Position numbers and translations under genes: made by a program. 64,000 nucleotides of DNA from Candidatus Acidiferrum sp. GTDB taxonomy: Bacteria; Methylomirabilota; Methylomirabilia; Rokubacteriales; CSP1-6. Below, piece after piece: positions 436-57,007 of this stretch (its first letter is position 1; every line of letters starts with the position of its first letter). The notes beneath the pieces are model-generated. The model had not been told where the DNA came from and did not search any database. It saw only the letters and a program-made list of their open reading frames with translations. The DNA lies in assembly GCA_035317605.1 (NCBI GenBank), contig DATHGT010000133.1:5452-69451 (forward strand). Direction: 5' to 3'.

Positions 436-437
436 GC

Positions 438-1253
438 TCAGCCGCGAGCACCCTCCATCGTGCACACGAACACGCCCCGTCCCTGGCGCTCGAAGCCTTC
501 GGCGGTCTTCGTACCGGGGGGCGGCGCCCACACGATGCCCTGGAACGTCACCTCGGCGAAGCCGGCGGCACGGACCATCCGCTCGACACAGGCCGGCCCG
601 TAGATCCACCAATTGGTGGTATCTCCGCAGTACGGGCCCTCGATGAACCAGGCGTACTCCGAGGCCGCGGGGTCGGTAAGCACCTCGGTCTCGAGGTACA
701 TGGTCCGCCGGGTGATCTTCGCCATCTTGGCGAGCATGTCGAGCGGGTTCTGCAGGTGATAGAGGAGTCCGGTGTTGAGCACGACGTCGAAGGGTGGCAG
801 GTCGGTGAGGGCGGCGTGTCCGTCCTGCAATCGAAACTCGACGTCGACGGCCAGGATCTCCCGAATCAACTGCGCCTGGCGGAAGTAGTGCGGCAACGTC
901 TCCAGGCCGAGCACCGATCGGGCCCCGCGCAGCGCGGCCACGAACGAGTAGAACCCGGCGTTGCAACCCACGTCGAGCACGGTCTGGCCCGTGAAGTCCC
1001 GCGGGAACCCGTGCTGGTCGAGCACGGCGAGGGCCCCATGGCACGGGTGGATGCCCGGCGTCTCCAGGCGCTGGCCGGCCGCGTCCTCGATGGTCAGACG
1101 ATGATAGTAGTCGACGCCGCGGCACTCCTCGATGCGCTGCGCGTACCGCCGAAACTCGTCGGGCGAGAGCGCACGGCCGAGCAGGAAACGGTCGGGCGCG
1201 AGGCTCACCGCCCTACTCGCCACCGCGGGCACGGCGACGGCGTCCGACCTCAT
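438..1253 (-). CDS. SAM-dependent methyltransferase, CmoB/DUF1698-like fold (paralog A)
   Basis: 271-aa ORF with motif TVLDVGCNAGFYSF and an NWWIYGP block. About 65% identical in protein to the plus-strand ORF 3466..4284. Its stop overlaps the wzt start region. Confidence 0.7.
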   Translation of the reverse strand: MRSDAVAVPAVASRAVSLAPDRFLLGRALSPDEFRRYAQRIEECRGVDYYHRLTIEDAAGQRLETPGIHPCHGALAVLDQHGFPRDFTGQTVLDVGCNAGFYSFVAALRGARSVLGLETLPHYFRQAQLIREILAVDVEFRLQDGHAALTDLPPFDVVLNTGLLYHLQNPLDMLAKMAKITRRTMYLETEVLTDPAASEYAWFIEGPYCGDTTNWWIYGPACVERMVRAAGFAEVTFQGIVWAPPPGTKTAEGFERQGRGVFVCTMEGARG

Positions 1254-2536
1254 GTGTGCAGGGTAATTTGCACGGGCAGCCAGACCTTGGTGTGGATCAT
1301 CCGGCCGTCGGTGGGAGGCAGGACTTCGAACACCAGGGCGTTGTCCACCCAGTCGAAGAAGGTCGCGGAGTAACGGTTGTACGCCAGTGCCGTTGTCACG
1401 CTGTACGTCCCGGGCGCGAGCGGAAGCCGATGTCGGTAATCTACCACAATCGTCTCACCGGCCCGGCGTGACGGGATGGGGGCGTGGTCCTCGTACGTGT
1501 TCGTCCCGATGATGTTGGTGCCGGTTTTGTCACGGACCAGGTAGCCCAGGATGCACTCGGCAACGTCCTGGTAGAACTCGACGTGGACCCGCAGGACGAT
1601 CTCCGCGTCGAAATCGGCCGCGGCCAGCGGCCGCAGGTTTCCGTTCAGCAGCTCGACGTTCCGGATCCGTGCGGCCCCCGTCCCATGGCGAAACAACCCG
1701 GCCCGCTGGTCGAAGGTTGCATCCGGACGAAAGACACTCGCGGTGGGGGCGAGGGCGGGCGCGGCCAGCGGCGCCGTCGCCGGCCCCGGGGACCGGGTCT
1801 CCAGGCTCGCGATATGGGCGTGGTAGAGGTTGGCGACGTCGGCTGGGTCGCCGAAGGCACGGACCTCGCCAGCGTGCATGAAGAGCACTTCCGAGCACAG
1901 CGCCTGCACCGTGCCGATGTCGTGGCTCACGAAGACGATGGTCTTGCCCTGCTCCTGCAGCTCCTTGATGCGACGGATGCAGCGGTGCTGGAAGATCGCG
2001 TCGCCGACGGCGAGGGCCTCGTCGACCAGCAGCACGGCGGGGTCGACGTGAATGGCGGCGGCGAAGGCCAGGCGAACGAACATGCCGCTCGAGTACGTTT
2101 TCACGGGCTGGTCGAAGTAGTGACCGATCTCGGCGAAGGCCTCGATGGCCGGCACCCGCGCCCGCGTCTCCTCGGAGCGGAACCCGAGGATCGTGCCCTG
2201 CATCATGACGTTCTCCCGACCGGTGAACTCGGGGTTGAAGCCCGCCCCCAGCTCGAGCAGCGAAGCCACCCGGCCCTGCACGGCGACCCGGCCGTGGGTC
2301 GGCTGCACGATGCCGGCGACGACTTGCAGCAGCGTGCTCTTGCCGGAGCCGTTCATGCCGATGATGCCCAGCGTGGACCCGCCCCGGATCCGAAAATTGA
2401 CGTTGTGCAGGGCCCAGAAGTCCCGGTGATAGCGACGACGTCCGCGCCAGAGGGCCTCGTAGAGACGATGCCGCGGATGCGCGTAGATCCGGTAGATCTT
2501 GGACACGGCCTCGACGTCGACCGCGAAGGCGGACAT
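1250..2536 (-). CDS. wzt: polysaccharide/O-antigen ABC transporter ATP-binding protein Wzt with C-terminal carbohydrate-binding (Wzt_C-like) domain
   Basis: In the 1250..3364 track ORF the real start is ATG 2536..2534 (MSAFAVDVEAVSKIYR...), in a TGATG overlap with the wzm stop. It has Walker A GMNGSGKST, signature YSSGM and Walker B LLVDEA. After the NBD there is a roughly 170-aa beta-rich C-terminal extension, as in Wzt proteins that recognise a capped glycan terminus. The 276 upstream codons of the track ORF are Arg/Gly-rich read-through. Confidence 0.85.
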   Translation of the reverse strand: MSAFAVDVEAVSKIYRIYAHPRHRLYEALWRGRRRYHRDFWALHNVNFRIRGGSTLGIIGMNGSGKSTLLQVVAGIVQPTHGRVAVQGRVASLLELGAGFNPEFTGRENVMMQGTILGFRSEETRARVPAIEAFAEIGHYFDQPVKTYSSGMFVRLAFAAAIHVDPAVLLVDEALAVGDAIFQHRCIRRIKELQEQGKTIVFVSHDIGTVQALCSEVLFMHAGEVRAFGDPADVANLYHAHIASLETRSPGPATAPLAAPALAPTASVFRPDATFDQRAGLFRHGTGAARIRNVELLNGNLRPLAAADFDAEIVLRVHVEFYQDVAECILGYLVRDKTGTNIIGTNTYEDHAPIPSRRAGETIVVDYRHRLPLAPGTYSVTTALAYNRYSATFFDWVDNALVFEVLPPTDGRMIHTKVWLPVQITLHT

Positions 2537-3300
2537 CAGAGCACGTCGACGAAGGCGTGCTTCGAACGACCGAAGACCCAGTGGCCCCCCACGAAGCTGG
2601 CCACGGCCACCGCGGCGAGGACGAGCAGCTGCGGACCCAGCGGGAATCGCCCTTCCAGGATCACATCGCGATAGGCCTGGACGACGTAGTACATCGGGTT
2701 CAGGGCGAGCACCCACGCGTAACGGGCCGGCATCAAGTCCGCGGGGTAGAAGATCGGGGTCAGGAACATCCAGAGCGTCATGGCCAGCCCCAGCACCTGT
2801 CCCACGTCGCGCAGGAAGACGTTCAGGCTGGCCAACACCCAGCCGACACCCATGGTGAACAGGAACTGCAGCACCATCACCAGGGGCAACAGAGCCAGGC
2901 TCCACCCGACGCCCCGCGAGAACAGTCCCACCCCCACGAGCATGATCGCGAGCCCCACCAGCTCCATCAGGAGCGCCGAGATCACCACGTACGCGGGCAG
3001 GATCTCCGAGGGAAAGACCACCTTCTTGATCAGTGGCGCCTGCTCCACGATGACCGAAGCGGAGCGGGTGATCCCCTCCGCGAAGGCCAGCCAGGGCAGC
3101 ATGCCGCAAAAGAGGTACAGGGCGAAGCCACCGGTCGTCCCGCCGCCGAACCGGATCTTGAGCACGTACGCGAAGACAAAGGTGTAGAGGAGCAGGAGCG
3201 CGAGCGGCTGGATGATCGCCCACGACAGGCCCATGACCGAGGTGACGTACCGTCCACGGATGTCTCGCCGCACGAACGCCTCGATCGTGGCGCGGTGCAA
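2536..3300 (-). CDS. wzm: ABC-2 type polysaccharide exporter permease Wzm
   Basis: 254 aa with 6 predicted TM segments. The N-terminus RDIRGRYVTSVMGLSWAIIQPL is typical of ABC-2 permeases. It lies immediately upstream of wzt and is translationally coupled to it. Confidence 0.85.
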   Translation of the reverse strand: MHRATIEAFVRRDIRGRYVTSVMGLSWAIIQPLALLLLYTFVFAYVLKIRFGGGTTGGFALYLFCGMLPWLAFAEGITRSASVIVEQAPLIKKVVFPSEILPAYVVISALLMELVGLAIMLVGVGLFSRGVGWSLALLPLVMVLQFLFTMGVGWVLASLNVFLRDVGQVLGLAMTLWMFLTPIFYPADLMPARYAWVLALNPMYYVVQAYRDVILEGRFPLGPQLLVLAAVAVASFVGGHWVFGRSKHAFVDVL

Positions 3301-3465
3301 GACGAGAATTCGAAACGGGGCGATCAGGGCGCCGGCGAACGTCGCGATGGCCGCCCTCCGACACTGCTCACGCCTGGATCATACATGACGCTACGCGGCC
3401 CACGAACGAATCGTGCGCGCGCCGTCCCGGAACCGGCCCCGAGTGCGGTATAGTGACCGCGACAT
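3301..3465. promoter_or_regulatory. divergent intergenic region between wzm (-) and methyltransferase B (+); candidate promoters
   Basis: 165 bp non-coding. A TATAGT hexamer sits about 13 nt upstream of 3466. An inverted repeat CACGA-N5-TCGTG lies near 3400. Confidence 0.3.
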
Positions 3466-4284
3466 GTGCGTCAACCGCGGCCGCTCGACGCCGCTTGCTC
3501 GCGTACCGGCCGCCCCTCGACGATGACGGTGACGCTGACGCCCGACGCCATGGTGCTCGACCGGCGGCTCACCGCGGACGACTACGCGCGTTACCGCAGG
3601 CAGATCGACGAGCGGAAATCCTGGGGGTACTACCAGCGGCTGGTCATCGCCGACGCGGGCGGCCAGCGCCTGGAGACCCCGGGCAGCCACGCGTGTCTGG
3701 GCTCCCTCGCCCTGCTGGATCGTCACGGGTTCCCGAAGGACCTCGCGGGTCAGACCGTGCTCGACATCGGCTGTAACGCCGGCTTCTACTCCTTCGTGGC
3801 CAAGCTGCGCGGAGCGAAGTCCGTCCTCGGTCTCGACTCGCAGCCCCACTACGTCGAGCAGGCGCTGCTGATGAGGGAGATCCTCGGTCTCGACGTGGAA
3901 TTCCGCGTGAGCGACGGCCACGATCTCGACGCGAACGCCGGGACGTTCGACGTGGTGATCAACACCGGCGTCATCTATCACCTGCAGAATCCCATGGACT
4001 TCCTGGTCCGCGTGGCCCAGGTCACCCGGCACCTCATGTATCTCGAGAGCGAAACCCTGCTCGACCCCAAGATGTCCGAGTACGCGTGGTTCATCGAGAA
4101 GGAATACGGCCAGGATGCCTCGAACTGGTGGATCTACGGCCCGCGCTGCGTGGAACGGATGGCGCGGGCCGCCGGGTTTCGGCAGGCCGTGTTCCAGGGC
4201 TTCGTGTGGACGCCGCCACCCGGCATGAAGACGCCGGAGGGATTCGCGCGCCAAGGACGCGGCGCCTTCCTCTGCCAGAAGTGA
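3466..4284 (+). CDS. SAM-dependent methyltransferase, CmoB/DUF1698-like fold (paralog B)
   Basis: The protein aligns along its full length with paralog A (TVLDIGCNAGFYSF, NWWIYGP, FQGFVWTPPPG). The alternative internal start MTVTLTPD at 3523 matches paralog A's N-terminus better. The TGA at 4282..4284 overlaps the GTG of the next gene. Confidence 0.7.
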   Translation: MRQPRPLDAACSRTGRPSTMTVTLTPDAMVLDRRLTADDYARYRRQIDERKSWGYYQRLVIADAGGQRLETPGSHACLGSLALLDRHGFPKDLAGQTVLDIGCNAGFYSFVAKLRGAKSVLGLDSQPHYVEQALLMREILGLDVEFRVSDGHDLDANAGTFDVVINTGVIYHLQNPMDFLVRVAQVTRHLMYLESETLLDPKMSEYAWFIEKEYGQDASNWWIYGPRCVERMARAAGFRQAVFQGFVWTPPPGMKTPEGFARQGRGAFLCQK

Positions 4285-6236
4285 GCGTGGAGTCCGCGTC
4301 CGCTCGCGCGGACGACCCGTCGTCGTTCTCCCGCGACCCCGTCACCCTCGCCGTCGGCCTCGCCGCCTTCGGTGTCCTGGCCGGCGCGCTCGGCCTCGCC
4401 GGCCTCTCGCTCCGACCGGTCGAGGCCGTCATGGTCGCGGTGCTCATCGCCTTCTTCGTGGTCAGCGTGCTGCTCTCGCCGGCCAACGGACTCGTGCTCC
4501 TCTATCTCGTGCCCCCGCTCTTCAACGGAGAGGACGGGCGTCCGTACTTCTGGCTGCTCGAGGTGCTCGTCTACCTGACCGTGGTGGTGGGCATCGTCAT
4601 CCGTCTGCGGCACCGGCAACGGCTCGTCGTCCCTCACGGGGTTCTGCTCGCGATGCTCTTCGCCTCGACCGTGGTTTCGTTTCCCCTCAACCTCAGGGAG
4701 GTGTGGCTCCAGCTCCAGGTTTCGCCCTGGAGCGAGGTGCTGCAAGGCGTCCGCCGGGCCGATCTCTGGGACAACCTCTTCTACGTGCGCACCGTCCTCA
4801 ACGTCGCCAGTGGCATCGGGCTGTTCGTGCTGGTCGTGAACGAGCGGTGGCCCCGCGAGCGGATCGCGCGACTGGCCGCGTCCATCGGCCTCGTCTACCT
4901 CGCCACGACCGCCCTCGGGCTGTGGTGTCACTGGCGGCCGGCGTCCCCCGCGGGCGCGTTCGTCACGCTCTGGCTCGGGGGGCCCGTGTTGGAGGGCTTT
5001 CAGAGCGTCGGTTTCAACATGTCGTATTTCGCGCAATACGCGCTCACCTATCTTCCGCTCATGGCCCTGCCCCTGGCGCTGACGGACGTGGCACCTCGCT
5101 GGGGGGCCGCCGTCGCCCTGCTGAGCTTGATCGTCAGCGGCTACACGATTCCCGCGGCCCACCAGAGGACGGCCTACCTCTTGTTCGTGATGGAGGTGCT
5201 GCTGTTGGTCGCGGCCGCCGTGAACTGGCGGCGGGGCCGAGGGGGACGGGCCGTCCTGGTCGTGGGGATGGGGGCCCTCGTCTTCACCGTCGTCGGGCTC
5301 GTCGTCTTCACCCCACTTGGTCACGGCATCGTCGTGCACGTCAAGCAGTTGTGGTGGAACGGCGACCCCTATCGGGTCAAGGCCCTGTCCGTCACGTGGC
5401 GCATGTTCCGCGACGAGCCACTGCTCGGCATCGGCAGCGGTCGATTCGCGGGCGTCTTCTCCCAGTACGACCAGGAGCCCAGGATGCAATGGGGCTCGTT
5501 GTCAGCTCACAACATCTACGCGCAGTTCCTCGCCGAGCAGGGCGGGCTCGGCTTGGTGAGCTTCCTCCTGCTGGTCGGGGCCGTCGTGATCCCGGCGGTG
5601 CGCAGCGTCCGCCGAGGTGGCCAGGGGCAGACGGCTCTGGTCTTCTTGCTGATATCGATGGCGGGGTGGCTGGCGTATGGGTGCCTTCAGTACACGTTCC
5701 TCATGCGATCGATGCAGGGGTATTTCTGGATCACGCTGGGGCTCCTGCTCATCTTGTCCGAGCCCTGGCGTGGTCGGCCGATGTCGAAGCGGTGGCTCGC
5801 CGCGATCGTGGTGGCGGTTCTGGTGCTGGGGTCGCTGCGCGTCGACGCCGCGCTCCGCCGTCCCGTTCCCGTCGGCTACGCCTGGGGGCTGTATCCCGGC
5901 GAGCCGGGCCAGACCCTCTGGACGCGCGGGGGCGCCGTGTTCAATTTTCCCGCGAATGGGACCCTGCTGACCCTCGCCTTCAGTTTCCCGATGCCGCAGG
6001 TGATCCACCGCCACCCGCAGCGCGCCACCGTGATCGTCGACGGCCGGCCGTTTCGTCAGATCGTCTTCGACTCGCCGTGGACCTGGGAGGTGGTCGACAT
6101 TCCCATCGACAAGCCGCGCGGCGCCCCGGTCCTCGTCCAGGTGAGGGTGGCGCGGACCGTCGTGCCCGCGGCGCTCGGGATCAACACCGACACGCGCCCG
6201 CTCGGCGTCCTCATGAAGCCTCCGTCCTGGCGCTGA
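4281..6236 (+). CDS. O-antigen ligase/polymerase-family (Wzy_C domain) polytopic membrane protein with about 130-aa C-terminal periplasmic extension
   Basis: The track ORF 4086..6236 overlaps the upstream gene. A GTG at 4281 (GTGA overlap) or 4287 precedes the first TM segment (PVTLAVGLAAFGVLAGALGLAGL). There are about 12 TM segments and the Wzy_C/O-antigen-ligase signature LLGIGSGRFAGVFSQYD...SAHNIYAQFLAEQGGLGL. The C-terminal soluble domain ends ...VQVRVARTVVPAALGINTDTRPLGV. Confidence 0.65.
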   Translation: MSVESASARADDPSSFSRDPVTLAVGLAAFGVLAGALGLAGLSLRPVEAVMVAVLIAFFVVSVLLSPANGLVLLYLVPPLFNGEDGRPYFWLLEVLVYLTVVVGIVIRLRHRQRLVVPHGVLLAMLFASTVVSFPLNLREVWLQLQVSPWSEVLQGVRRADLWDNLFYVRTVLNVASGIGLFVLVVNERWPRERIARLAASIGLVYLATTALGLWCHWRPASPAGAFVTLWLGGPVLEGFQSVGFNMSYFAQYALTYLPLMALPLALTDVAPRWGAAVALLSLIVSGYTIPAAHQRTAYLLFVMEVLLLVAAAVNWRRGRGGRAVLVVGMGALVFTVVGLVVFTPLGHGIVVHVKQLWWNGDPYRVKALSVTWRMFRDEPLLGIGSGRFAGVFSQYDQEPRMQWGSLSAHNIYAQFLAEQGGLGLVSFLLLVGAVVIPAVRSVRRGGQGQTALVFLLISMAGWLAYGCLQYTFLMRSMQGYFWITLGLLLILSEPWRGRPMSKRWLAAIVVAVLVLGSLRVDAALRRPVPVGYAWGLYPGEPGQTLWTRGGAVFNFPANGTLLTLAFSFPMPQVIHRHPQRATVIVDGRPFRQIVFDSPWTWEVVDIPIDKPRGAPVLVQVRVARTVVPAALGINTDTRPLGVLMKPPSWR

Positions 6237-6267
6237 GCCGACGCCCGCGCCATCGTTCGTCGGTCCG

Positions 6268-7587
6268 CTAGCCGGGCAGATCGACGATTCGCCAGTCGCC
6301 CCAGGCGAGATCACGGATGGCGAACTGCCAGATCACCACGCGTGTCCCATCGAGCCGCCGCCAGCCGCGCGCCAGCTCGTTGGCGAGGACGAGACGGGAC
6401 AGATACGCGCCTCCGCCGGGTAGGCAGATCTTGTCGAGCGGACGAGCGAGCTCGACGCTGAGCGTCTCCGGCAGGCCGGCGGCGAGCGGGCGGCCGATCT
6501 GGTCTGTCCCGTACATCATGCAGAAGCTGTCGCCGAGCAGGAGCACGTCCGCCGAAGGTGTCGGCTGCCACAGGGCGCCCGCGTGATCGACGACCTGCCG
6601 TACGCGAAGCGTCAGCGGCGGGTACAGCATCTGGCCGAGTGGAAGATAGAGCAGGTTGACCAGGTCGAACTGGACGAGATGGGCCTCGGCCTCCTTCGTC
6701 CGATAGGCCTGCGGGCGCGGGGGCAGGCCGGCGGCCCGGCCGATGGTCCGCGCCAGGCCGGCCGCCACCACGCCCATCGTCTCCGGAAGCCAGTGCGTGT
6801 CGGCCCGCAAGTACGCGGGCGACGTTCGGGAGCGAGCATAGATGTCGGCCGACGGATCGAACACCTCGACGCGTTCGCGCGCGAGCGCTTCCCTGAACGC
6901 GGCGTACGACGGATTCTGCGGCACCGAGTCCCAGCGCGGGACGGATCGGAATCGCTCCGGATGGATCATGTCCTTGTCGGGCGTGGGCAGGAGGATCAGG
7001 TCGATGCCGCGCGCCGCGAGCTGGCGCCGAAAGCGGATGATCGCGGGGCGGGGATCGGGTTGCTGGAGGTCGTCGGTGCTCTTGGCGGCGGCCCTCCGCC
7101 GGGCCAGCACCTGGGGATCGAGAAACCCGGGGCCCATGACGTACTCGACCCCCATGCGGTCGAAGAGCCAGCGATGCTCGCCGACGTAGATGGTGTCGTT
7201 CCCCACGTCGAGGCGGCTGGTGATGATCGTCTGCGCCGTGGTCCGGACGACGTGGCCGACGACCGAGCCGCGTTCGAGCGCCGTCTCGAAGCGACGGAGT
7301 CGGGCCTCGGTCGGCACCCAGGCCAGCAACCGCCGGACGCGCCGACGGAGGTCCCGTCCGAAGGGAAGCACCTCCGCTTCGAGCATTTCCGGCGACGCCG
7401 CCTCGACCGCCGCCGCCGACGGCACGCGGAAACGCCCCAGCTCCGAGCAGGCCTGCACGAGGGGCACGATGAGGATGGTGAGGAGGAGCGCGCCCACCAG
7501 CATCCAGCGCACACCCCGCGAAAACGAGGTGTGCCCCAGCTCGGCCAAGGCTTGCTCTTCGCGACTGCGGGGGGCGTCACTCGTCAT
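6268..7587 (-). CDS. AlgX/AlgJ-like (SGNH/DHHW-type) periplasmic polysaccharide O-acetyltransferase partner protein
   Basis: 439 aa with an N-terminal TM anchor (WMLVGALLLTILIVPLV), the motif YLRADTHWLPETMG and a GDS-like block LLLGDSF. It lies directly downstream of the MBOAT gene in the same orientation, the classic two-component O-acetylation arrangement. Confidence 0.6.
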   Translation of the reverse strand: MTSDAPRSREEQALAELGHTSFSRGVRWMLVGALLLTILIVPLVQACSELGRFRVPSAAAVEAASPEMLEAEVLPFGRDLRRRVRRLLAWVPTEARLRRFETALERGSVVGHVVRTTAQTIITSRLDVGNDTIYVGEHRWLFDRMGVEYVMGPGFLDPQVLARRRAAAKSTDDLQQPDPRPAIIRFRRQLAARGIDLILLPTPDKDMIHPERFRSVPRWDSVPQNPSYAAFREALARERVEVFDPSADIYARSRTSPAYLRADTHWLPETMGVVAAGLARTIGRAAGLPPRPQAYRTKEAEAHLVQFDLVNLLYLPLGQMLYPPLTLRVRQVVDHAGALWQPTPSADVLLLGDSFCMMYGTDQIGRPLAAGLPETLSVELARPLDKICLPGGGAYLSRLVLANELARGWRRLDGTRVVIWQFAIRDLAWGDWRIVDLPG

Positions 7588-7630
7588 CGCCGCTGGCCCG
7601 GCCGTCCCGATCGCGCTCGGCTTGCCATGC

Positions 7631-9118
7631 TCAAAAGATGAAGTAGATAAACGGGTTGTAGGCCTGGGTGAACAGCACCACCAGGGCCAGCCACAGCACG
7701 GCCAGGCTGGCGCAGGCCCGCGGCCAGGTCAGGCGGCGGGTGAAGTCCCAGGCCTGCGGCGCGCTCCACACCACCACGGCCGCCAGGACGAACGTCCCCA
7801 CGTAGTACGGCTTGTACACCAGTCCCCGCAGCAGATCGGCCGCCTCCGAGGTCGTGGTCAGGCCGGCCATTGTTCTCAGATACGCGACCGCGTCGGGGAG
7901 GCTGGCGGCGCGGAAGAAGACCCAACCGACGAGCACGACGAGGAACGTCGCCATCCACTGGATCGGCGGCGCCCCCCATCGCCGTCCCCTGCCGGCGAGG
8001 GCGCCCCTGCCGGCGAGGGCGCGCTCGACGGCCAGGCAACCCCCGTGCAGGCCGCCCCAGACCAGGAAGTTCCAGGACGCCCCGTGCCACAACCCACCCA
8101 GCAGCATCGTCAGGATCAAGTTCACGTAGGTGCGCACGGGCCCCCGACGGTTTCCCCCGAGTGGGATGTAGAGATAGTCCCTGAGCCACGTCGACAGTGA
8201 GATGTGCCACCGCCGCCAGAACTCCGTGATCGAGCGGCTGCGATACGGCGAATCGAAATTCTTGGCGAAGACGAAGCCGAGCATGAGGCCGAGCCCGATC
8301 GCCATGTCGGAGTAACCGGAGAAGTCGAAGTAGATCTGAAAGGCATAGGCGACGGCCCCGTACCAGGCATCGAGGGCATGGGCGCTGGGCGCCGTGAAGA
8401 CGGTGTCGGCGATCTTGCCGCAGGGATTCGCCAGCAGCACCTTCTTGCCCATCCCCAGGCTGAACAGGGCCACGCCGCGGGCGAACTTGTCGACGGTGAG
8501 CGACCGTCCGGTCAGCTGCCCGGACAGGAACGAGAATTGGAGGATGGGACCGGCCACCAGGTGGGGAAACATCGAGACGAAGCAGGAGAAGTCGACGAAC
8601 CGGTCGAGGGCCCGCGCATGCCCGCGGTACACGTCGATGGTGTAGCTGAGCGACTGGAACGTGTAGAAGCTGATGCCGAGGGGCAACACGACGTGGAGCA
8701 CGCCCACCCAGGCCGCCCCCTCGAAGCCGAGCCCCCTGACCAGGGCATTGTAGTTGTCGATGCCGAAGTTGAAGTATTTGAAGAACCCCAGCACGAGCAG
8801 GTTCGACACGACGGAGACCACGATGGCCCCGTGCTGAAGCCTGCTCCGGGGCGTGCCCGGCGCCAGCGCGGGGGCCGGACGCGCCCTCGCCCACAGCCGC
8901 CAGTCGTCGTGAGCGACGACCAGGCTGGCCAGCCAGTCGATCGCGGTCGTCCCGAACATGAGGACGATGAAGAGCGGGTTGCTCCATCCGTAGAAGACGT
9001 AGCCGAGCAGGGCCAGCGACAGGTTGCGCATCCGCGGGTACAGCGCGCTCACCGAAAAATAGACCGCGAGCGCGATGGGAAGAAAGTAGAAGACGAAGAC
9101 CTGGGAGCTGAAGACCAT
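7631..9118 (-). CDS. MBOAT family membrane O-acyltransferase (AlgI/DltB/PatA-like)
   Basis: 495 aa. It carries FYTFQSLSYTIDVY, WRRWHISLSTWLRDYLYIPLGGNR and MLLGGLWHGASW, with the conserved His in the MBOAT core. It contains an in-frame 2x18-bp tandem duplication (ALAGRG-ALAGRG). Confidence 0.85.
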   Translation of the reverse strand: MVFSSQVFVFYFLPIALAVYFSVSALYPRMRNLSLALLGYVFYGWSNPLFIVLMFGTTAIDWLASLVVAHDDWRLWARARPAPALAPGTPRSRLQHGAIVVSVVSNLLVLGFFKYFNFGIDNYNALVRGLGFEGAAWVGVLHVVLPLGISFYTFQSLSYTIDVYRGHARALDRFVDFSCFVSMFPHLVAGPILQFSFLSGQLTGRSLTVDKFARGVALFSLGMGKKVLLANPCGKIADTVFTAPSAHALDAWYGAVAYAFQIYFDFSGYSDMAIGLGLMLGFVFAKNFDSPYRSRSITEFWRRWHISLSTWLRDYLYIPLGGNRRGPVRTYVNLILTMLLGGLWHGASWNFLVWGGLHGGCLAVERALAGRGALAGRGRRWGAPPIQWMATFLVVLVGWVFFRAASLPDAVAYLRTMAGLTTTSEAADLLRGLVYKPYYVGTFVLAAVVVWSAPQAWDFTRRLTWPRACASLAVLWLALVVLFTQAYNPFIYFIF

Positions 9119-9154
9119 CGATCAGGTCAACCCGGCCGGCCAGGGGTCCCGTGG

Positions 9155-10399
9155 TCAACGATGACCGAGGAGCCTCGTCGAGACGTGGCGCTTGAGCGCC
9201 TGGTACGCGGGAAGGTGTCGGACCCGGTCCACGGCGGGCTTGATCGGCCCGGTATTCCGCAGCCGCTGGAGCAGACGCCAGAGGCGGAAGGCCTGGCGTC
9301 GGGCGTGGGCGCGCAGGGCCTTCTTCAACGTGCCGGCGTCGTCACGCTCGTCGACGGGCAGGGCGAACAGCTCGATGGCCGGTGAGACGAGGGGAACCTC
9401 GATCGTCTCGGGAATGCCGCGGTTGCGCGCGCACACCAGGATGCGCTCGATGCTCTCGCCCCCCGGTCCCCGGCCCGGGCTCACCGACGCAACCCCCGCG
9501 ACTTCGAATCCGCACGCGGTGAACAGCCGCTCCAGCTCGGCCCGAGCATAGACACGGACGAACGCCCCGCCCCGGTCCTTGGCCTCGAACCACGCCTCGG
9601 AGACGAGCATCTCGGGGTCGAGCTGGACGAAGTCGACGCAGGCCCAGGCGCCGAGGGCGAGCTGGCGTTGGACGTTCTGGAGCGTCCGCACGAAGCTCGG
9701 GTAGAGATGCTCGAAGGTCGCCGAGCATACGAACAGGTCGCACTCCGCCTCCACCTGGTCGGTCATGGCGTCGCCCCGAACGAAGCGGGTGTGCTCGTCG
9801 CCGAACCTTTCGGAGAGCTTCTGGACCCGGTCGCCGGAGAGGTCCAGCCCCGTATAGCTCCGATAGGTATGTCCAGCGGCGCGCAGCGAGGCCAGCAGAC
9901 GGCCGTACCCGGGACCGACCTCCAGGATGCGCCCTTGGCGGAGGGTGCCCAGGTCGACGTGGGCGCCGAGGGCGCCGATGAAGGTGTCGCCGGTCATGAC
10001 CGAGCCCCAGGTGAGCGAGGCCTCGGATTCCGCGCCTTGCCACCGCTCCTTGGAGCGGGTCATCGGGTCCTCGGCCGCGAATCGCGCGGCCGAGTGCGTG
10101 TCGTAGTAGAGCGTGGAGGTGCCGTTCGGCAGCAACGCTCGGGTGTCGGCGAAGCGCACCTCGAAGCGATTCTCGCCGTACTCCAGAGACTCGAAGGGGT
10201 TGAACCAGAAGGCCCCGCGCGCGTCGACCACACCGGCGTTCAGGAGGTCGGCGCGGACGCCGCGGGCGGGGACGACGGCGACCAGGCGATCGTTCCGCAC
10301 GATCTCCACGCCCACGGTCCGCCCGGGGTGTTCGCGGTCGGCCGCCCATCCGTGGATCGAAAACATCGTGAACCGGTCGACGTGACCGTCCAGCCTCAT
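9155..10399 (-). CDS. class I SAM-dependent methyltransferase with about 130-aa N-terminal beta-rich domain of unknown function
   Basis: 414 aa. Motif I is ILEVGPGYGRLLASL, followed by the D/E-containing motifs. The N-terminal domain (FSIHGWAADRE...FWFNPF) has no recognisable catalytic motif. Confidence 0.65.
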   Translation of the reverse strand: MRLDGHVDRFTMFSIHGWAADREHPGRTVGVEIVRNDRLVAVVPARGVRADLLNAGVVDARGAFWFNPFESLEYGENRFEVRFADTRALLPNGTSTLYYDTHSAARFAAEDPMTRSKERWQGAESEASLTWGSVMTGDTFIGALGAHVDLGTLRQGRILEVGPGYGRLLASLRAAGHTYRSYTGLDLSGDRVQKLSERFGDEHTRFVRGDAMTDQVEAECDLFVCSATFEHLYPSFVRTLQNVQRQLALGAWACVDFVQLDPEMLVSEAWFEAKDRGGAFVRVYARAELERLFTACGFEVAGVASVSPGRGPGGESIERILVCARNRGIPETIEVPLVSPAIELFALPVDERDDAGTLKKALRAHARRQAFRLWRLLQRLRNTGPIKPAVDRVRHLPAYQALKRHVSTRLLGHR

Positions 10400-10433
10400 G
10401 GGTGACTGCGGCCCGCTCCCGGCGGCGCGGCCG

Positions 10434-11390
10434 TCATGACGGGCGCGACGTCCAGTAGACCTTCTTCTGGTAGCAGTAGAAGCTGTGCTTCCCCCACGGG
10501 ACTCGGTCGCTGTGCTCGACGTAGTGGAAGTACATCGGGTAGGTATTGGCGGGACTGTAGTGCGTCACCAGACTCCGCCGGGTCCGCGTCTCGTCGGTGT
10601 ACGGCGATCCGCCGTGGCCGAGATCGGCCGACCAGATGAAGACGTCGCCCTTCTTGGCCAGGAACCTCGTGGCCGCGACCTTCCGCTGCCTGGCGCAGTC
10701 CGCGAGGTGCCGGTGGAACTGGTCGGTCTCTTCGTTTCCCGGAGGCCACCACTTATACTTGCCCTCGAAGAGGAACTCCGGCCAGGTGTGGCTGCCCTTG
10801 TAGTACTCCAGCTCGCCCGAGCCGGGATGCACGTCCTCGAGGGCCACCCACGAGGCCACCAGCTCCATCGGTGAGCTGACTTTGACGAAGGCGGTGTCAC
10901 GGTGGATCGGCTGCTTGGATCCACGGTAGAAGCTCAAACCCTGGTGGGCCAGGACGGGACGCTCGAAGATGATCTCGAGGAAACGCTGGATCCGGGGGGC
11001 GAAGATGACCCGTCGCGCCGACTCCATGAACTCGTAGATGTCGAGGAGCTTGACGAGGTTGTCGGGCTTGAGGCGATCCTCGGGCTTGAGCGGTCGCGAG
11101 TACCCCACGCCGTCCTCGATGAGGTTCACCCACGCGTTGGGATGCCCCTTTTCCCAGACGTCCTCGATCTCCGCGCTCAACGCGTCGATCAGGTCCAGGT
11201 CGACGGCGCCCGGCATCACCACGTAGCCGTCGTCGATCCACGACATCAGGTCCGCGTGTTCCTCTTCGGTGATCACGCCGAGCCGGAGCTTGCCGTCCGC
11301 CAGCGTCTTGGCGTGACCGAGGTCGGGCCAGAGGCCGCCGAAGGGACTCCGATACTTCGGGACGAAGACGGGATTGCGGAACGGGTCCAT
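10434..11390 (-). CDS. phytanoyl-CoA dioxygenase (PhyH) family Fe(II)/2-oxoglutarate-dependent oxygenase
   Basis: The real start is ATG 11390..11388 (MDPFRNPVFVPKY...) inside the track ORF 10434..11678. An HxD motif sits in PIHRDTAF, with a downstream His and the double-stranded beta-helix core typical of PhyH. It is the first gene of the minus-strand operon PhyH - methyltransferase - MBOAT - AlgX-like. Confidence 0.65.
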   Translation of the reverse strand: MDPFRNPVFVPKYRSPFGGLWPDLGHAKTLADGKLRLGVITEEEHADLMSWIDDGYVVMPGAVDLDLIDALSAEIEDVWEKGHPNAWVNLIEDGVGYSRPLKPEDRLKPDNLVKLLDIYEFMESARRVIFAPRIQRFLEIIFERPVLAHQGLSFYRGSKQPIHRDTAFVKVSSPMELVASWVALEDVHPGSGELEYYKGSHTWPEFLFEGKYKWWPPGNEETDQFHRHLADCARQRKVAATRFLAKKGDVFIWSADLGHGGSPYTDETRTRRSLVTHYSPANTYPMYFHYVEHSDRVPWGKHSFYCYQKKVYWTSRPS

Positions 11391-11462
11391 CCGAGAGGCA
11401 GATCCTAGCACATCGATCGCGCGCCACCGACGCGATTGCCGTCGATCGCCCCGACTCGCCCC

Positions 11463-11518
11463 AAAAAGTTGACTTTTTCGACGGCCAGGAATCAGACTCG
11501 CCGAGTGCGATTTCGCAC
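11463..11518. promoter_or_regulatory. two short perfect/near-perfect palindromes in AT-rich divergent promoter region
   Basis: The 302-bp intergenic region 11391..11692 lies between the PhyH operon (-) and the S8 peptidase (+). AAAAAGTTGACTTTTT (11463..11478) contains a TTGACT -35-like hexamer. GTGCGAttTCGCAC (11505..11518) is a perfect 6-bp-arm palindrome. Confidence 0.3.
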
Positions 11519-11734
11519 CCGACGGGGTGAAGCATCGCGGCGGCTCGCGGGTTCCGTCACTCACCTCGACGTGACTCGCCCGTTCGAGACCGTCCCCTTC
11601 CCGCGCGATCGTCGCCGACGTCCTGACGACCCTCGTCCACATGGCCGGGCTCGTCACGCGAATCATGCCGGAGAGCATGTCTGGCCCCGGCCGTGCAGCC
11701 AGGAGCGCGCTGCCATGAGAGGGAGGACACGCTG

Positions 11735-13846
11735 ATGCACGCCTCGCGGACCTTCGTGTTGATCGCGGCCGTCTGCCTGTTGGCTCTGGCCCTCGGCTCC
11801 GAGCGCGGGGGGATTCGTGGTTCGGCCCGCGCGGACGATCTGTTCGTGTCGCCCGACGTGATGAACCAGCTGGCGACCTCCGGGCGCGCGCGGGTCATCG
11901 TGGAGGTCCGGCTGCCGAACGCATTCGTTCCCGAGGGACAGCTGCCCACGCCGGCGCATGTGGCACTCCAGCGAGCCAATCTGGCGTCAGCGCAATCTCG
12001 GGTGCTGTCTCGGCTCCAGGGCCGGAGCCACGCGGTCCTGCGTCAATTCTCTTCCGCTCCCTACCTCGCACTGGAGGTCGCCGCCGACGCCATGCAAGAG
12101 CTCGCGGGGGCGTCCTCTGACGTCCAGCGGGTGGTGGAAGATGCGCTGTACGAGCCGATGCTGCCGCAGAGCGCGCCGCTGGTCGGAGCCACCGAGGCGT
12201 GGGGGTTACAATTCGACGGGACAGGGGTCATGGTCGCCATTCTCGACACCGGCGTGGACCGAAGCCATCCCTTCTTCGCGGGAAAGATCCTCGAAGAAGC
12301 GTGCTTCTCCAGCAGCATCTTGGGATCGGCCTCCGTCTGTCCGAACGGTCAGCCGCAGCAGTTCGGGGCAGGCGCCGGCGTCCCTTGCCCGTCGACCATT
12401 CCCGGATGCTGGCATGGCACGCACGTGGCGGGCATCGCCGCGGGCAACGGCGCTAGCGCCGGGGTGGCGTATTCCGGCATCGCCAAGGGCGCCCAGATCA
12501 TGGCGGTCCAGGTCTTTTCCCGAATGACGATCGTCTCCACCCAGTGCCCGGCGCCCCCCTGCGCCTTGGCCTGGAACTCCGACATCATGGCGGGTCTCGA
12601 CCGCGTCTACAGCCTGCGCAACCAGCGCAACTTCGCGTCGGTCAACCTGAGCCTCGGCGGAAGCCTCTTCAGCGGCAACTGCGACTCCGATCCGACGAAG
12701 TCGTTCATCGACAATCTCCGCTCGGTCGGGATCGCCACCGTCATCGCCTCCGGCAACGACGGCTCGACCTCGAAGATGAGCTCGCCGGCGTGCATCTCCT
12801 CGGCGGTGAGCGTGGGTTCGACGGAGAAGGCCGACGTCGTGTCGTCGTTCTCGAACGTGGCCCCGGTTCTTTCCCTCTTCGCTCCCGGGGGGATCATCCA
12901 GTCGTCCTATCCCGGGGGCCAGTGGATCTTCGCCAGCGGAACCTCCATGGCGACCCCGCACGTCACCGGCGCCTTCGCGATCCTGAAACACGCGGTGCCC
13001 AGCGCCTCGGTGAGCACGATGTTGAGCGCGCTCCAGCAAACCGGCGTGTCGATCACGGACATCCGGCCCGGAGGGACCGTCACCAAGCCCCGGATTCAGG
13101 TCGCCAAAGCCCTGTCGTCCCTGGCCCCCGCGCCCCCGCCTCCGTCGCCGATCCCGAACGTGCAACTCGGCGTCTCCGGGGACATTCCCATCCCCGCCGA
13201 CTACGACGGCGACGGCAAGGTCGATCCCGCCGTCTATCGGCCGTCGACCGGACAGTGGTTCGTCCTGGGCAGCGCCACCGGCCTGCAGACCCGTATCTTC
13301 GGTGCGCCGGCCTCGAGCGGCCTCGGCGATACCGCGGTGCGCGCGGATTTCGATGGCGACGGCAAGGCCGACATGGCGATCTATCGTCAGGCGACGGGGG
13401 AGTGGTTGGTCTTCGGCAGCCGTAGCGGATTCCTCACCCTGCTGTTCGGGTCGCCGGCCTCTCTCGGCCTCGGCGACATTCCGGTCCCCGCCGACTACGA
13501 CGGCGACGGCATCGCCGATCTGGCGGTCTATCGCCAGGCCACCGGCGAGTGGTTCATCTTCGGTAGCCGCACGGGATTTCGCACGCTGCTCTTCGGCTCA
13601 CCGGCCTCTCTCGGCCTCGGCGACGTCCCGGTCCCCCGCGACTACGACGGCGACGGTAAGGCGGACCTGGCGGTCCGCCGGAACAGCACCGGCACCTGGT
13701 TCATCTTCCAATCGAGCCTCGGTCAGGTCCAGCAGGTCTGGGGGACACCCACGGACATCCCGACGCCCGGCGACTTCGACGGCAACAAGAAGAGCAACAT
13801 CGCCGTCTGGCGGCCGAGCGATGGAACCTGGCTGATTTCTCCGTGA
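11735..13846 (+). CDS. secreted subtilisin-like serine peptidase (S8) with C-terminal FG-GAP/VCBS-like repeat domain
   Basis: The start is ATG 11735, 8 nt after GGGAGG (track ORF starts at 11693). It has a signal peptide MHASRTFVLIAAVCLLALALG. The catalytic triad blocks are VAILDTGVD, HGTHVAGIAAG and GTSMATPHVTGAFAIL. Five C-terminal repeats of about 45-49 aa each carry DYDGDGKxDxAVYR...G.W...FG.PAS.GLGD (a Ca-binding DxDGDG plus FG/GAP signature). Confidence 0.85.
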   Translation: MHASRTFVLIAAVCLLALALGSERGGIRGSARADDLFVSPDVMNQLATSGRARVIVEVRLPNAFVPEGQLPTPAHVALQRANLASAQSRVLSRLQGRSHAVLRQFSSAPYLALEVAADAMQELAGASSDVQRVVEDALYEPMLPQSAPLVGATEAWGLQFDGTGVMVAILDTGVDRSHPFFAGKILEEACFSSSILGSASVCPNGQPQQFGAGAGVPCPSTIPGCWHGTHVAGIAAGNGASAGVAYSGIAKGAQIMAVQVFSRMTIVSTQCPAPPCALAWNSDIMAGLDRVYSLRNQRNFASVNLSLGGSLFSGNCDSDPTKSFIDNLRSVGIATVIASGNDGSTSKMSSPACISSAVSVGSTEKADVVSSFSNVAPVLSLFAPGGIIQSSYPGGQWIFASGTSMATPHVTGAFAILKHAVPSASVSTMLSALQQTGVSITDIRPGGTVTKPRIQVAKALSSLAPAPPPPSPIPNVQLGVSGDIPIPADYDGDGKVDPAVYRPSTGQWFVLGSATGLQTRIFGAPASSGLGDTAVRADFDGDGKADMAIYRQATGEWLVFGSRSGFLTLLFGSPASLGLGDIPVPADYDGDGIADLAVYRQATGEWFIFGSRTGFRTLLFGSPASLGLGDVPVPRDYDGDGKADLAVRRNSTGTWFIFQSSLGQVQQVWGTPTDIPTPGDFDGNKKSNIAVWRPSDGTWLISP

Positions 13847-13889
13847 GGTCTCGCCTCGCCCGAGGCCTCGCGACGAGCGAACCAAGCGC

Positions 13890-16800
13890 GTGAGCCACGA
13901 CAGTCCTTCCGACGTCTGCATCGTCATCCCGGTGTTCAACAAGCGGGCCTTCACGCTCCAATGCCTCGACCGGATCTGGCGGAACACGTCGACCATCGTC
14001 CCCTACGAAGTCGTCGTGGTGGACAACGGCTCGAGTGACGGCACCCGGGAGCACTTCGAGGGCGGCGTCGTCTCGCCGCGACTGCGGTACCTCCGGAACG
14101 ACACCAACCTCGGCTTCGCCAAGGGCAACAACCTCGGAGCGCGACTGGCCCGGGGGAAGTATCTGCTGTTCCTCAACAACGACACGCTGGTCCAGCCCAA
14201 ATGGCTCGAAGACATGGTCGGCCTGGCCAGCGGCGATCCCGCGATCGGCATGGTCGGCATCAAGCAGCTGTTCCCCTACACCAGCACCATCCATCACACC
14301 GGCATCGTCTTCACCGCGGGCGCCCGTCCCCTGCACCTCTATCCGCACGCGGACGCGCGGTGGCCTCACGTCAACAAGCAGCGCGAGTATCAGGCCGTCA
14401 ACGGCGCGTGCTTCTTGATCCGGCGCGAACTGTTCGAGGCGTGCGGCGGCTTCGACGAGGGCTACGTCAACGGATACGAGGACATGGACCTCTGCCTGGC
14501 CGTGCGGCAGCGCGGCTTCAAGATCGTCTGCTGCACGTCGTCCTTCATCTATCACTACGGCCAGATCTCCGAGGGGCGGACCAGCGCCGACGCCCGCAAC
14601 GCGGCGCGCTTCGTCGCCAAGTGGGGAGCCCACGTCCGGGCCGACGACGGCGACTACGCTCACGCCGACCTGGAGGACGTTCAGCGGGTCGAGGCGGCCC
14701 GCCGCCTCGTGCCCGCGCCCCGGCCGGAGGGCGGGGCCGCGTTCCACTTCGTCGACGACCTCTCGCGGGGCAGCGCGCTGTCCTGGGCGGTGGCCGATCT
14801 CGTCCTCGCCCTCAAGCGCCTCGGGGCGCCGGTCCACATCGCGAACACGCCCCTGACGAAGACCCTCGACGAGTCGACCCGCCGGGAGCTGCAGCCCCTG
14901 ATGCGCGGCGATCGTGACCCGGACGGAGTGCACATCAAGTGGTCGCATTACTGGCCGGAGCATCTCGCCCTCGATCTGACCGGCCGGATCAACCTGGAGC
15001 TGTTCGTCATCAACTACACGTTCGCCCGGCCTGGCGCCGACCCGTGGGACTACTGGCTCCAGTGCCTGGCGCAGAATCACTATCACAAGCTGCCGCTGAC
15101 TCGGTTCTGCCAGGACGTGCTCCTCGAGGTCGGGGTGCCGGCGGCGGAGAGCCACCTCTTGCACCTCGGCTATTCCCGCGAAGTCCACGACGTGGGGCCG
15201 CCCCCGCGCCGCCCGGGGGGATTCCGCTTTCTCACCGTCACCAACTCGCACGACCTCACGCGCTACGGGACCCGACTGCTCCTGGAGGCCTACTGGGACG
15301 CCTTCGCGCGCGGGGACGACACGGTCCTGGTCGTCAAGGACTACGGGGCCACGTCGGCGGACACCACGCTCCGCGACCTCATGCGCCGGGCGAACGGCCG
15401 GGCCCGCGTCGAGTACGTCGATGCGTTCACGAGCAAGCGGGACCTGATCAGCCTCTATCGTTCCTGCGACGCCTTCGTCTCGGCCCACCGCAGCGAAGGC
15501 TTCGGCATGAAGATCCTCGACGCGCTCGCCTGTGGTCTGCCCGTGATCACCCCGCGCTTCGGCGGCCCCGCGGACTTTTGCACGCCCGAGACCAGCTTCG
15601 AGGTGGCGTTCACCCTGGAGCCGATGACCGACTGCCTCGACACCCGCTCGCTCCGGATCACCAATCAACCGCTCTGGGGTGCGCCCGACCGCAACGACCT
15701 CGTGAGGCAGCTGCGGTTCGTGGCCGGCCACCCCGCGGCCGCCGCCGCGGTGGGCGAGGCCGGACGTCGCTCGGTCGTGGATCGCTTCACCTGGGACGCC
15801 TCCGCGCGGCGGCTGGTCGCCATCGTGGACGAGATCCGCGAGGGGCAGACGCGGCGCACCACGCGACGGGCCGACCGGGCCCCGGCCCCCGCGGCCGAGG
15901 CGTCGCCCTACTGGCTCGGCTGCCGGTTGAGCGTGGTCATTCCCACCTATAACCGCAAGGACACGCTGCTCCAGTGTCTGGCCGCGCTGGAGCGGCAGTC
16001 GATCCTGCCCTCGGAGTTCGAGGTCGTGGTCGTGGACGACGGCTCGACGGACGGCACCGAGGCGGCGCTGGCCGCGCGTCAGTTCACGTTTCCCCTCGAA
16101 TACCACCGGCAGTCGAATCAGGGGCCGGGCGCCGCCCGCAACCTCGGCGTCACCCTCGCCCGCGGCGAGCTGGTGCTCTTCATCGGAGACGACATCATCG
16201 CCCACGAGCGGCTGCTGGAGCACCATCTCCTGACCCACGCGCAACATCCCGAGGCGAGCGCGTCCGTGCTCGGACACATCGACTGGCCGCCGTGGCTGAC
16301 GCCCACGCCGGTGATGGACTACGTGTGCGGGGAGGGCGGTCTTCAGTTCGCGTACCAGTTCATCCCGGATCTTCCGTCGCTCGACTACCGGTTTTTGTAC
16401 ACGAGCAACATCTCTCTGAAGCGCCGGTTTCTCCTGGAGGCGTTCGAGGCGGGCGTCCGCTTCGACCCGTGCTTCCGGTACGCGGCGTTCGAGGATTCCG
16501 AGCTGGCCCTCCGGCTCGAGTCGCGGGGACTCACCATCCACTACTCCAGCGACGCGCTCGCCTACCACGATCACTGGATGGACCTCGAAAGCTTCGCGCG
16601 CCGCGAATACAGCGCCGGGCAGATGGCGGTGGTCTTCTACCGCAAGCATCCGAAGATGGACGAGGTCCTGACCGTGCGCTGGATCGGAGACTGGGTCGAG
16701 GCCGTCGAGAAGCTCCGCGCGCAGCCGGCCTTGCTGGACAAGGTCAAGACGCTGGACGCGCACACCGACCAGTTCCTCGTCTCGCTGGAGCGGTCCCTGG

Positions 16801-17303: not shown

Positions 17304-17320
17304 CGATCCTCGCCCGGGCA

Positions 17321-41974: not shown

Positions 41975-41976
41975 CG

Positions 41977-56949: not shown

Positions 56950-56986
56950 CGGATCATTCTTTCCGCGCGCCCGTCGGAGTCCGCTT

Positions 56987-57007
56987 CGTGTTCAAAATGT
57001 GAACAGG
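56987..57007. promoter_or_regulatory. palindromic candidate operator CGTGTTCA-aaatg-TGAACA upstream of the pseB array
   Basis: Perfect 6-bp arms TGTTCA/TGAACA with a 5-nt spacer at 56989..57005, about 40 bp upstream of the pseB start. The same core recurs at 58631..58646. Confidence 0.35.

Follow-up and report, generated by a model that had tools for sequence, protein, structure and literature searches.

Two-component O-acetylation, in which an MBOAT-family membrane acyltransferase is paired with an SGNH-type protein, is known from AlgI/AlgJ/AlgX (alginate), PatA/PatB (peptidoglycan and secondary cell-wall polymers) and WssH/WssI (cellulose), and these pairs work autonomously. For polymers exported by an ATP-binding cassette (ABC) transporter, a wzm-wzt-wbdD gene layout is known from Escherichia coli O8/O9a. 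Among Fe(II)/2-oxoglutarate (2OG) oxygenases, SnoK and KanJ act on sugar moieties, and to our knowledge the one established Fe/2OG dioxygenase hydroxylating a cell-surface glycan sugar is KdoO, the 3-hydroxylase of 3-deoxy-D-manno-octulosonic acid (Kdo) in the lipopolysaccharide (LPS) core; we found no biochemical characterisation of a PhyH-family enzyme from a bacterial surface-polysaccharide locus in the open-access literature. PhyH-family genes have been noted in Xanthomonas LPS cassettes, the BXO8-type included (bioRxiv 10.1101/2022.03.02.482478), and in the LPS cluster of Xanthomonas citri the PhyH-like XAC3597 adjoins rfbC-wzt-wzm and its transposon mutant is biofilm-defective (PMC3130047). 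Here we consider a 64-kb stretch of contig DATHGT010000133.1 (GC ~68%; ‘the window’ below, at its full length), in which four adjacent minus-strand genes at 6268–11390 encode, in the direction of reading, a PhyH-family oxygenase, a methyltransferase, an MBOAT-family acyltransferase and an AlgJ-like protein.

The four-gene unit and its variable cassette

By its gene content the window is clearly devoted to glycan biosynthesis, and we take it to be a large surface-polysaccharide region of an uncultured Acidobacterium. We lean, with a little more belief than doubt, towards reading the four genes as two separable tailoring modules in a Wzm/Wzt surface-polysaccharide locus, the oxygenase with the methyltransferase and the MBOAT with the AlgJ-like protein, acting in the manner proposed below. 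The four open reading frames (ORFs) are separated by gaps of 43, 36 and 34 nt and have a third-position GC of 0.87–0.92. All four give Pfam matches exceeding the gathering score, confirming the domain assignments (PhyH, methyltransferase, MBOAT, ALGX) made in a preliminary description of this DNA. That description also called the four genes an operon; the same-strand ORFs are indeed there, but their order is not conserved in relatives. Hydrophobic segments are absent from the oxygenase and the methyltransferase; the AlgJ-like protein carries a single anchor and the MBOAT protein is polytopic. No intrinsic terminator or sigma-70 consensus was found between the genes by a scan that is uninformative here.

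The separability of the two modules is suggested by a Joint Genome Institute metagenome contig (L007) that is colinear with the window over 18 kb at ~92% identity. It carries the orthologs in the same order, with 95% identity for PhyH, Wzt, Wzm, a glycosyltransferase and an S8 protease, 82–84% for methyltransferases and 86% for the Wzy_C protein. In blastn, window positions 1–6249 align to it at 91.5% and 9153–18474 at 92.7%, and the 2,903 bp between them, 6250–9152, are without alignment. This presence/absence cassette runs from the methyltransferase stop to the stop of the convergent Wzy_C gene and holds precisely the AlgJ-like and MBOAT genes; in L007 the same two stops lie ~20 bp apart. 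A foreign origin of the cassette was rejected, its GC and third-position GC being equal to those of the flanks, and because of this equality gain and loss are not distinguishable. Among other loci with the oxygenase and methyltransferase genes (~10 look-up or genome loci and 13 metagenome loci), no adjacent MBOAT/ALGX pair was found; the only trace was a 72-residue MBOAT match on a 1.2-kb contig (L119), next to a distant methyltransferase. From these alignments, the apparent four-gene operon appears to be two separable glycan-tailoring modules, with the MBOAT/AlgJ-like block gained or lost as one.

The proteins of the cassette fit the two-component O-acetyltransferase that had been recognised there earlier, an MBOAT gene beside an ALGX-domain gene with catalytic motifs present in both. 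The MBOAT protein (495 aa, 7631–9118, minus strand; PF03062, E = 4.7e-29, 102 bits against a cut-off of 27) has multiple hydrophobic segments and the two conserved histidines of AlgI/PatA/DltB-like enzymes, H305 in FWRRWH and H345 in GLWHG. It aligns to DltB (PDB 6BUG, E = 4e-26), with GLWHG matching GFWHG. A DltB function in D-alanyl transfer was nevertheless rejected: the NCBIfam DltB equivalog gives 151.6 bits, below its cut-off of 375, and no dltA, dltC or dltD gene was found in the window. Because the score falls so far below the DltB cut-off and dlt partners are lacking, the sensible reading of the protein is an AlgI/PatA-type carrier of acetyl groups.

The second protein of the cassette (439 aa, 6268–7587, minus strand) matches ALGX (PF16822) over aa 171–423 (E = 3.3e-27, 96 bits against a cut-off of 26.5). 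Near its N terminus lies one hydrophobic anchor of the uncleaved type (aa 22–51), and D263, H265 and S354 form a putative catalytic triad. Its best sequence match in the PDB is AlgJ (4O8V, E = 3e-7), where D263-x-H265 is aligned to DTHW; S354, in a GDS motif 91 residues past the aspartate, is placed by motif alone and lies outside the PDB alignment. Since the profile ends at aa 423 of 439, there is no room for the carbohydrate-binding module of AlgX. Membership of the ALGX family therefore stands, but the protein is AlgJ-like rather than AlgX-like as previously labelled; AlgX proper was set aside on the missing C-terminal module, the membrane anchor and the AlgJ match. The clean presence and absence of this cassette in two 92%-identical genomes amounts to a natural experiment on O-acetylation as a diversifier of surface antigens.

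The oxygenase and its methyltransferase partner

The oxygenase gene (10434–11390, minus strand) was mechanically listed as an ORF of 414 aa; starting at the internal ATG at 11390, its product is 318 aa long, which is the length of all close homologs, and is identical to a protein from an NCBI metagenome-assembled genome of ‘Candidatus Acidoferrum sp.’ The PhyH profile (PF05721) matches at E = 1.4e-16 (61.9 bits against a cut-off of 22), and the protein has the double-stranded beta-helix fold of the family. Its metal triad, H163 (10902–10904), D165 (10896–10898) and H259 (10614–10616), aligns to H175/D177/H264 of PHYH and is invariant in 30 homologs, so that the HxD...H facial triad, on whose completeness the preliminary description had made its reading depend, is complete and conserved. 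The 2OG-binding R271 (10578–10580) aligns to PHYH R275, and both R271 and S273 are invariant. By its residues the soluble enzyme should be catalytically competent; a halogenase was ruled out, the triad aspartate being present. The family has its own invariant N-terminal motif, YRSxFGGLWxD, and an insertion around aa 200–235, and the top structural neighbours include the carbocyclase SnoK and the orthoester-forming EvdO1/EvdO2/AviO1/HygX. In a Planctomycete homolog (P0117/L037), an N-terminal PF08327 domain (AHSA1/SRPBCC-like) stands in place of the beta-sandwich described next.

The methyltransferase (414 aa, 9155–10399, minus strand) is a three-part protein by Pfam and by its AlphaFold (AF2) model. 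Methyltransf_23/25/11/12 match it at 1e-8 to 1e-11 over aa 154–300 only, leaving ~140 N-terminal and ~90 C-terminal residues without a Pfam match, so the N-terminal domain of unknown type that had been reported on this protein is borne out. In the model (predicted local distance difference test score 80), a well-predicted beta-sandwich would occupy aa 1–100 and a Rossmann core aa 150–326, followed by a disordered stretch (332–356) and helices (356–410). Pfam, the model and structural matches assign the core (9422–9952) to the class I S-adenosylmethionine (SAM)-dependent methyltransferases, with a Rossmann-like fold, a glycine-rich motif I intact as LEVGPGYG (aa 159–166) and an acidic residue ending beta2. 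Its best structural matches are generic small-molecule or natural-product methyltransferases, RebM/AtmM and the corresponding domain of EvdMO1 among them. In several relatives (P0125, P0126, P0136 and L004 3485–4777), the partner has a degenerate motif I (e.g., LELEPGSGR, GLGPDSAR) together with an internal deletion, and a second, intact methyltransferase (P0133) is found on the same contig as P0125. The basic helical C-terminal tail (aa 356–414, 9158–9334), with 16 K/R against 1 D/E, is found only in the closest relatives and is possibly a membrane- or partner-binding segment.

The N-terminal domain (10100–10399), with the signature GW(A)...RxDL...G.G...F, gave no match to Pfam at E ≤ 10, and its profile gave none to PDB sequences. 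An earlier word-index search with this profile had returned short fragments only and was replaced by an exhaustive HMMER search, which, at E ≤ 1e-3, picked out 15,910 cluster representatives from 1.84 billion proteins. The domain (~95 aa) is often repeated 3–16 times in tandem, the longest such protein reaching 5,916 aa. Its partners in 66 sampled proteins were type IX secretion system sorting tails, methyltransferases, GT2 glycosyltransferases, WbsX, a sulfotransferase, DltD, radical SAM proteins and peptidases. It is thus a promiscuous module of both glycan-processing enzymes and secreted proteins, and would probably bind a glycan or a partner protein. A repeat family of this size (~16,000 cluster representatives) without a Pfam model deserves annotation.

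The association of the oxygenase with this partner recurs widely. The neighbour counts given here are approximate, since the home-made gene caller overlooks some genes and makes others too long. In L004, the gene that follows PhyH aligns over its full length with the window methyltransferase (38% identity, E = 6e-90); matches to the N-terminal domain or the core flank PhyH in L002, L004, L007, L008, L009, L010 and L014, and a methyltransferase ortholog adjoins it in L090 too. Of 17 metagenome loci with a methyltransferase core at least 40% identical, 13 have PhyH adjacent and the remaining four are short or end-cut contigs; PhyH-like genes accompany more distant cores as well. A Pfam census of immediate neighbours at 79 loci of the broader PhyH family returned methyltransferases as the sole recurrent neighbour (6 upstream, 8 downstream). 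Fusions are found in two forms, methyltransferase-PhyH (P0082, L041) and N-terminal domain-PhyH (P0067 and ~30 others, ~420 aa). Adjacency and fusion together mark the oxygenase and the methyltransferase as a conserved two-gene module.

Some Acidobacteria show a PhyH-methyltransferase-PhyH arrangement (L010 4086–7077, L091), the two oxygenase copies being 55% identical. At six loci (L010, L016, L096, L100, L102 and L110), the methyltransferase-PhyH pair comes after a block of three genes (~470, 215 and 431 aa) and before a convergent GT2-containing gene of ~930 aa. The recurrent block suggests a larger conserved cassette in Acidobacteria; the locus-wide Pfam counts include Wzy_C and TPR, counted for the locus and not tied to single genes of the block.

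Proposed mechanism and its alternatives

We propose that the oxygenase and the methyltransferase would act in the cytoplasm before export, on a nucleotide sugar or an undecaprenyl-linked chain, because both are without signal peptides and need Fe(II), 2OG, O2 and SAM. Going by family behaviour and context, the oxygenase would most likely hydroxylate a C–H position of a sugar or of an N-acyl substituent, and the methyltransferase would methylate the new hydroxyl or a neighbouring position. The MBOAT protein would carry an acyl group across the membrane; once the polymer has been exported, the membrane-anchored AlgJ-like SGNH protein would transfer the group to it in the periplasm, and would do so in this strain only. 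The identities of genes and domains, the intact catalytic residues, the polymorphism of the cassette, the conserved pairing, the fusions and the glycan surroundings are shown; the substrate, the hydroxylation chemistry, the order of the steps and co-transcription are what we infer here.

Several points weigh against this scheme. The short same-strand gaps and the lack of a consensus terminator are the only indications that the four genes are co-transcribed. The enzymes closest in structure to the methyltransferase core are generic ones. Because motif I is lost in several relatives and a second, intact methyltransferase is present on at least one contig, the partner may contribute more than catalysis, perhaps acting as a scaffold, and methylation may not be its essential contribution. 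Most PhyH homologs at 37–50% identity are orphans in heterogeneous neighbourhoods, and the SRPBCC-type N-terminus of the Planctomycete homolog hints at an enzyme suited, in that lineage, to a hydrophobic small molecule.

Such observations bear on whether the substrate of the pair is a glycan at all. It might be a small metabolite or a lipid head-group, or else a protein, for instance the secreted S8/FG-GAP product encoded next to the pair, which would then be a mere passenger in the locus; this we think unlikely. Two loci (L008 and L009) carry the pair with no glycan genes within the available sequence; this counts against a glycan substrate, as do the mixed neighbours of the broad family (GDSL lipases, phosphoesterases and enoyl-CoA hydratases among them at low counts), the SRPBCC fusion, and the S8/FG-GAP gene lying beside PhyH in the window, L004, L007 and L090. 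That last linkage, however, is seen in very close relatives only and may be plain synteny, and around members of the pair-bearing subfamily the genes are predominantly those of glycan synthesis. Within 8 kb of the pair at 13 loci, the 105 neighbour genes include 15 methyltransferases, 8 GT4, 6 GT2 and 5 Wzy_C genes, 6–7 TPR proteins and 4 DUF7657/DUF7654 genes, and no lipid-metabolism family recurs among them. The preliminary description would have given up its glycan reading had orthologs belonged to lipid loci; the pair-bearing near-orthologs sit instead among GT4, GT2, Wzy_C, methyltransferase, Wzm and Wzt genes. On the contig carrying a 73%-identical PhyH (P0004), a convergent methyltransferase-methyltransferase-Wzt(Wzt_C)-Wzm block comes after the oxygenase and its partner. 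Of 80 genome loci, ~10 have Wzm and/or Wzt no farther than 10 kb away, and a rhamnan locus on the Novosphingobium plasmid pLA5 has a PhyH homolog, truncated by an insertion sequence (51% identity, C-terminal half only), beside GT-A and methyltransferase genes. The occurrence of the N-terminal domain in GT2, WbsX, sulfotransferase and DltD proteins also disfavours a non-glycan substrate. Because the census of 79 loci gave no dominant partner other than methyltransferases, the broad family is not assignable to glycans, and the glycan assignment would hold for the pair-bearing subfamily only.

If the substrate is a glycan, the four genes could still form one dedicated pathway that hydroxylates, O-methylates and O-acetylates the same sugar or substituent, as first suggested for this locus. 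The shared strand, the gaps of 34–43 nt, the lack of a detected internal terminator and a compatible topological order, cytoplasmic and then periplasmic, would all suit such a pathway. We consider it improbable, however, since L007 at 92% identity keeps PhyH, the methyltransferase and all flanks without the MBOAT and AlgJ-like genes, that pair occurs in none of ~20 other PhyH-methyltransferase loci, and MBOAT/SGNH pairs are established as autonomous elsewhere.

A further alternative gives the oxygenase and the methyltransferase a different role, namely building or editing a non-reducing-end cap that stops extension and is read by the C-terminal domain of Wzt, much as WbdD does but with oxidative chemistry. 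Wzt here carries Wzt_C, the pair lies beside Wzt(Wzt_C)/Wzm on the P0004 contig and in L007, and the extra binding-type domain and basic helical tail of the methyltransferase recall, by analogy, the membrane-associating C-terminus of WbdD. Yet a different methyltransferase (438–1253) holds the wbdD-like place, its start overlapping the wzt stop, the pair has neither a kinase domain nor a long coiled coil, and most pair-bearing loci show Wzy_C and glycosyltransferases with no Wzm/Wzt within reach; we judge this role to be quite as improbable as the single pathway. The idea that the oxygenase is an oxidative O- or N-demethylase erasing methyl groups that the many methyltransferases of the locus put on, or performs a non-hydroxylating reaction such as epimerisation, cyclisation or orthoester formation, we regard as highly improbable, even though methyltransferases are unusually numerous in this locus and in its relatives and the carbocyclase SnoK and the orthoester-forming EvdO1/EvdO2/AviO1/HygX are among the structural neighbours.

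Returning to the two-module reading, we entertain, with distinctly more doubt than belief, the wider notion that oxygenase, methyltransferase and shared beta-sandwich form a widespread uncharacterised module of oxidative glycan tailoring, split here and fused in other lineages. Just as tentatively, in Acidobacteriota and other soil phyla it would equip surface polysaccharides associated with Wzm/Wzt or Wzy_C with a hydroxyl, a methoxy group or another oxidised decoration, and it might also create the terminal epitope that Wzt reads. If true, PhyH-type Fe/2OG chemistry would for the first time have been assigned to a polymer of the bacterial cell surface, and if the pair tailors polysaccharides, oxygenase chemistry would join the methyl, acetyl, phosphate and pyruvyl decorations already known on glycans. 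The chemistry of surface polysaccharides in Acidobacteria and other soil phyla has hardly been explored, and the domain fusions and the partner domain offer a concrete handle for finding the module in many genomes. Nothing here overturns current understanding; we regard it as a reasonable lead and no surprise.

The export locus and described systems

The genes beyond the four indicate an ABC transporter-dependent locus, with wzm followed by a wzt that carries Wzt_C. Wzm (2536–3378, minus strand) is an ABC-2 permease (ABC2_membrane, 6e-23), and Wzt (1250–2539, minus strand) joins the ABC ATPase (ABC_tran, 2e-20) to a C-terminal carbohydrate-binding domain (Wzt_C, 2e-31). Next comes a 271-aa methyltransferase (438–1253, minus strand; Methyltransf_9/31/23), whose ATG start overlaps the wzt stop; the overlaps among the three genes are 4 nt each and the layout is the same in L007. 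Occupying the place of wbdD in the E. coli layout, this methyltransferase is by position the candidate chain terminator. A second, paralogous methyltransferase, recognised by Pfam and cross-matches (3466–4284, plus strand), is divergent from wzm and 60–63% identical to the methyltransferase at 438–1253; in all, three methyltransferases besides the PhyH partner lie near wzm/wzt. The Wzy_C membrane protein (O-antigen ligase/polymerase-like; 4086–6236, plus strand; 4.7e-14) is convergent with the four genes and probably starts downstream of 4086, its L007 ortholog being called at 650 aa.

On the other side of the four genes lies a three-domain GT2-GT4-GT2 glycosyltransferase of 1,137 aa (13890–17303, plus strand), 95% identical in L007, which recalls the multidomain polymerising transferases of ABC-dependent O-antigen pathways. 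It is flanked by secreted-type proteins with FG-GAP repeats (11693–13846, plus strand, and 17321–19462, minus strand), one with an S8 subtilase domain and one with Big_7, the repeats of the different genes sharing 72–79% similarity as DNA. In the window, and likewise in all very close relatives (L004, L007, L090), PhyH has the S8/FG-GAP gene as its divergent neighbour. The window also holds a WecA/MraY-type initiating transferase, several GT4 and GT2 genes, two AsnB-type amidotransferases, one heparinase II/III-like protein and a nonulosonic-acid set (PseB-, PseC- and NeuB-like proteins, cytidylyltransferases, HisH/HisF-like proteins). Among the nonulosonic-acid genes lies a second PhyH-family gene with a WHKD...H motif (43533–44396, minus strand; Pfam PhyH, 1.4e-14). 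It had been described as a paralog of the first within a pse array; the location is right, but it is no close paralog, and a recent duplication was rejected, the pairwise similarity not being significant (BLASTP E = 0.04). Around it (40317–56991) we observed a NeuB-like protein of 607 aa that is extended at its N terminus, a fusion of a cytidylyltransferase with an aldo/keto reductase, several methyltransferases and HisH/HisF-like genes, and large ORFs at 41977–43761 and 44359–46293 are without a Pfam match.

Set beside described systems, the oxygenase and its partner appear to have no characterised counterpart, given the low identities (11–20%), the N-terminal motif of the oxygenase and the shared un-modelled beta-sandwich. 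With SnoK, EctD, PHYH, PHYHD1 and KanJ the oxygenase shares the double-stranded beta-helix fold, the HxD...H triad and the C-terminal 2OG arginine; unlike them, at 14–18% identity, it has the YRSxFGGLWxD motif and the aa 200–235 insertion. The orthosomycin enzymes EvdO1/EvdO2/AviO1/HygX and the fused EvdMO1 resemble the pair in fold and in methyltransferase/oxygenase architecture, but identity is 11–20% and the N-terminal beta-sandwich is absent from them. In the reports cited in PMC10338323 (PMC4577193, PMC7231510), these enzymes belong to actinomycete antibiotic clusters and form orthoesters or methylenedioxy bridges; nothing in the window points to such chemistry. KdoO was not among the PhyH sequence matches or the top-60 structural matches, and it differs in acting on lipid A-core Kdo and not on an O-chain or exopolysaccharide. 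The Xanthomonas LPS cassettes and the pLA5 rhamnan locus are alike in context, each placing a PhyH gene in a Wzm/Wzt or rhamnan locus with glycosyltransferase and methyltransferase genes; XAC3597 is compared by context only. The likeness to WbdD of E. coli O8/O9a lies in a methyltransferase with extra non-catalytic regions and a locus Wzt with a cap-reading C-terminal domain. Unlike WbdD, the protein at 9155–10399 has no kinase domain, its C-terminal helices are short and its gene is not downstream of wzt; a WbdD-type terminator identity was set aside for it, the wbdD-like position being held by 438–1253.

The MBOAT/AlgJ-like module, by its motifs, seems an ordinary member of the known two-component O-acetylation systems. 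As in AlgI/AlgJ/AlgX, PatA/PatB, WssH/WssI and DltB/DltD, an MBOAT protein with both histidines stands beside an ALGX-domain gene, whose product has, like AlgJ, DxH...S motifs and an N-terminal anchor, and as in AlgI/AlgJ-type systems, action in the periplasm after export is predicted. The differences are that the window polymer would pass through a Wzm/Wzt pathway and not a synthase as in AlgI/AlgJ/AlgX-type systems, that the AlgF- or AlgX-type partner and the carbohydrate-binding module of the alginate system are absent from the window, and that, unlike DltB/DltD, DltA/DltC genes are absent too, the acyl group presumably being acetyl. Unlike the known MBOAT/SGNH systems, the pair in the window forms a strain-variable cassette.

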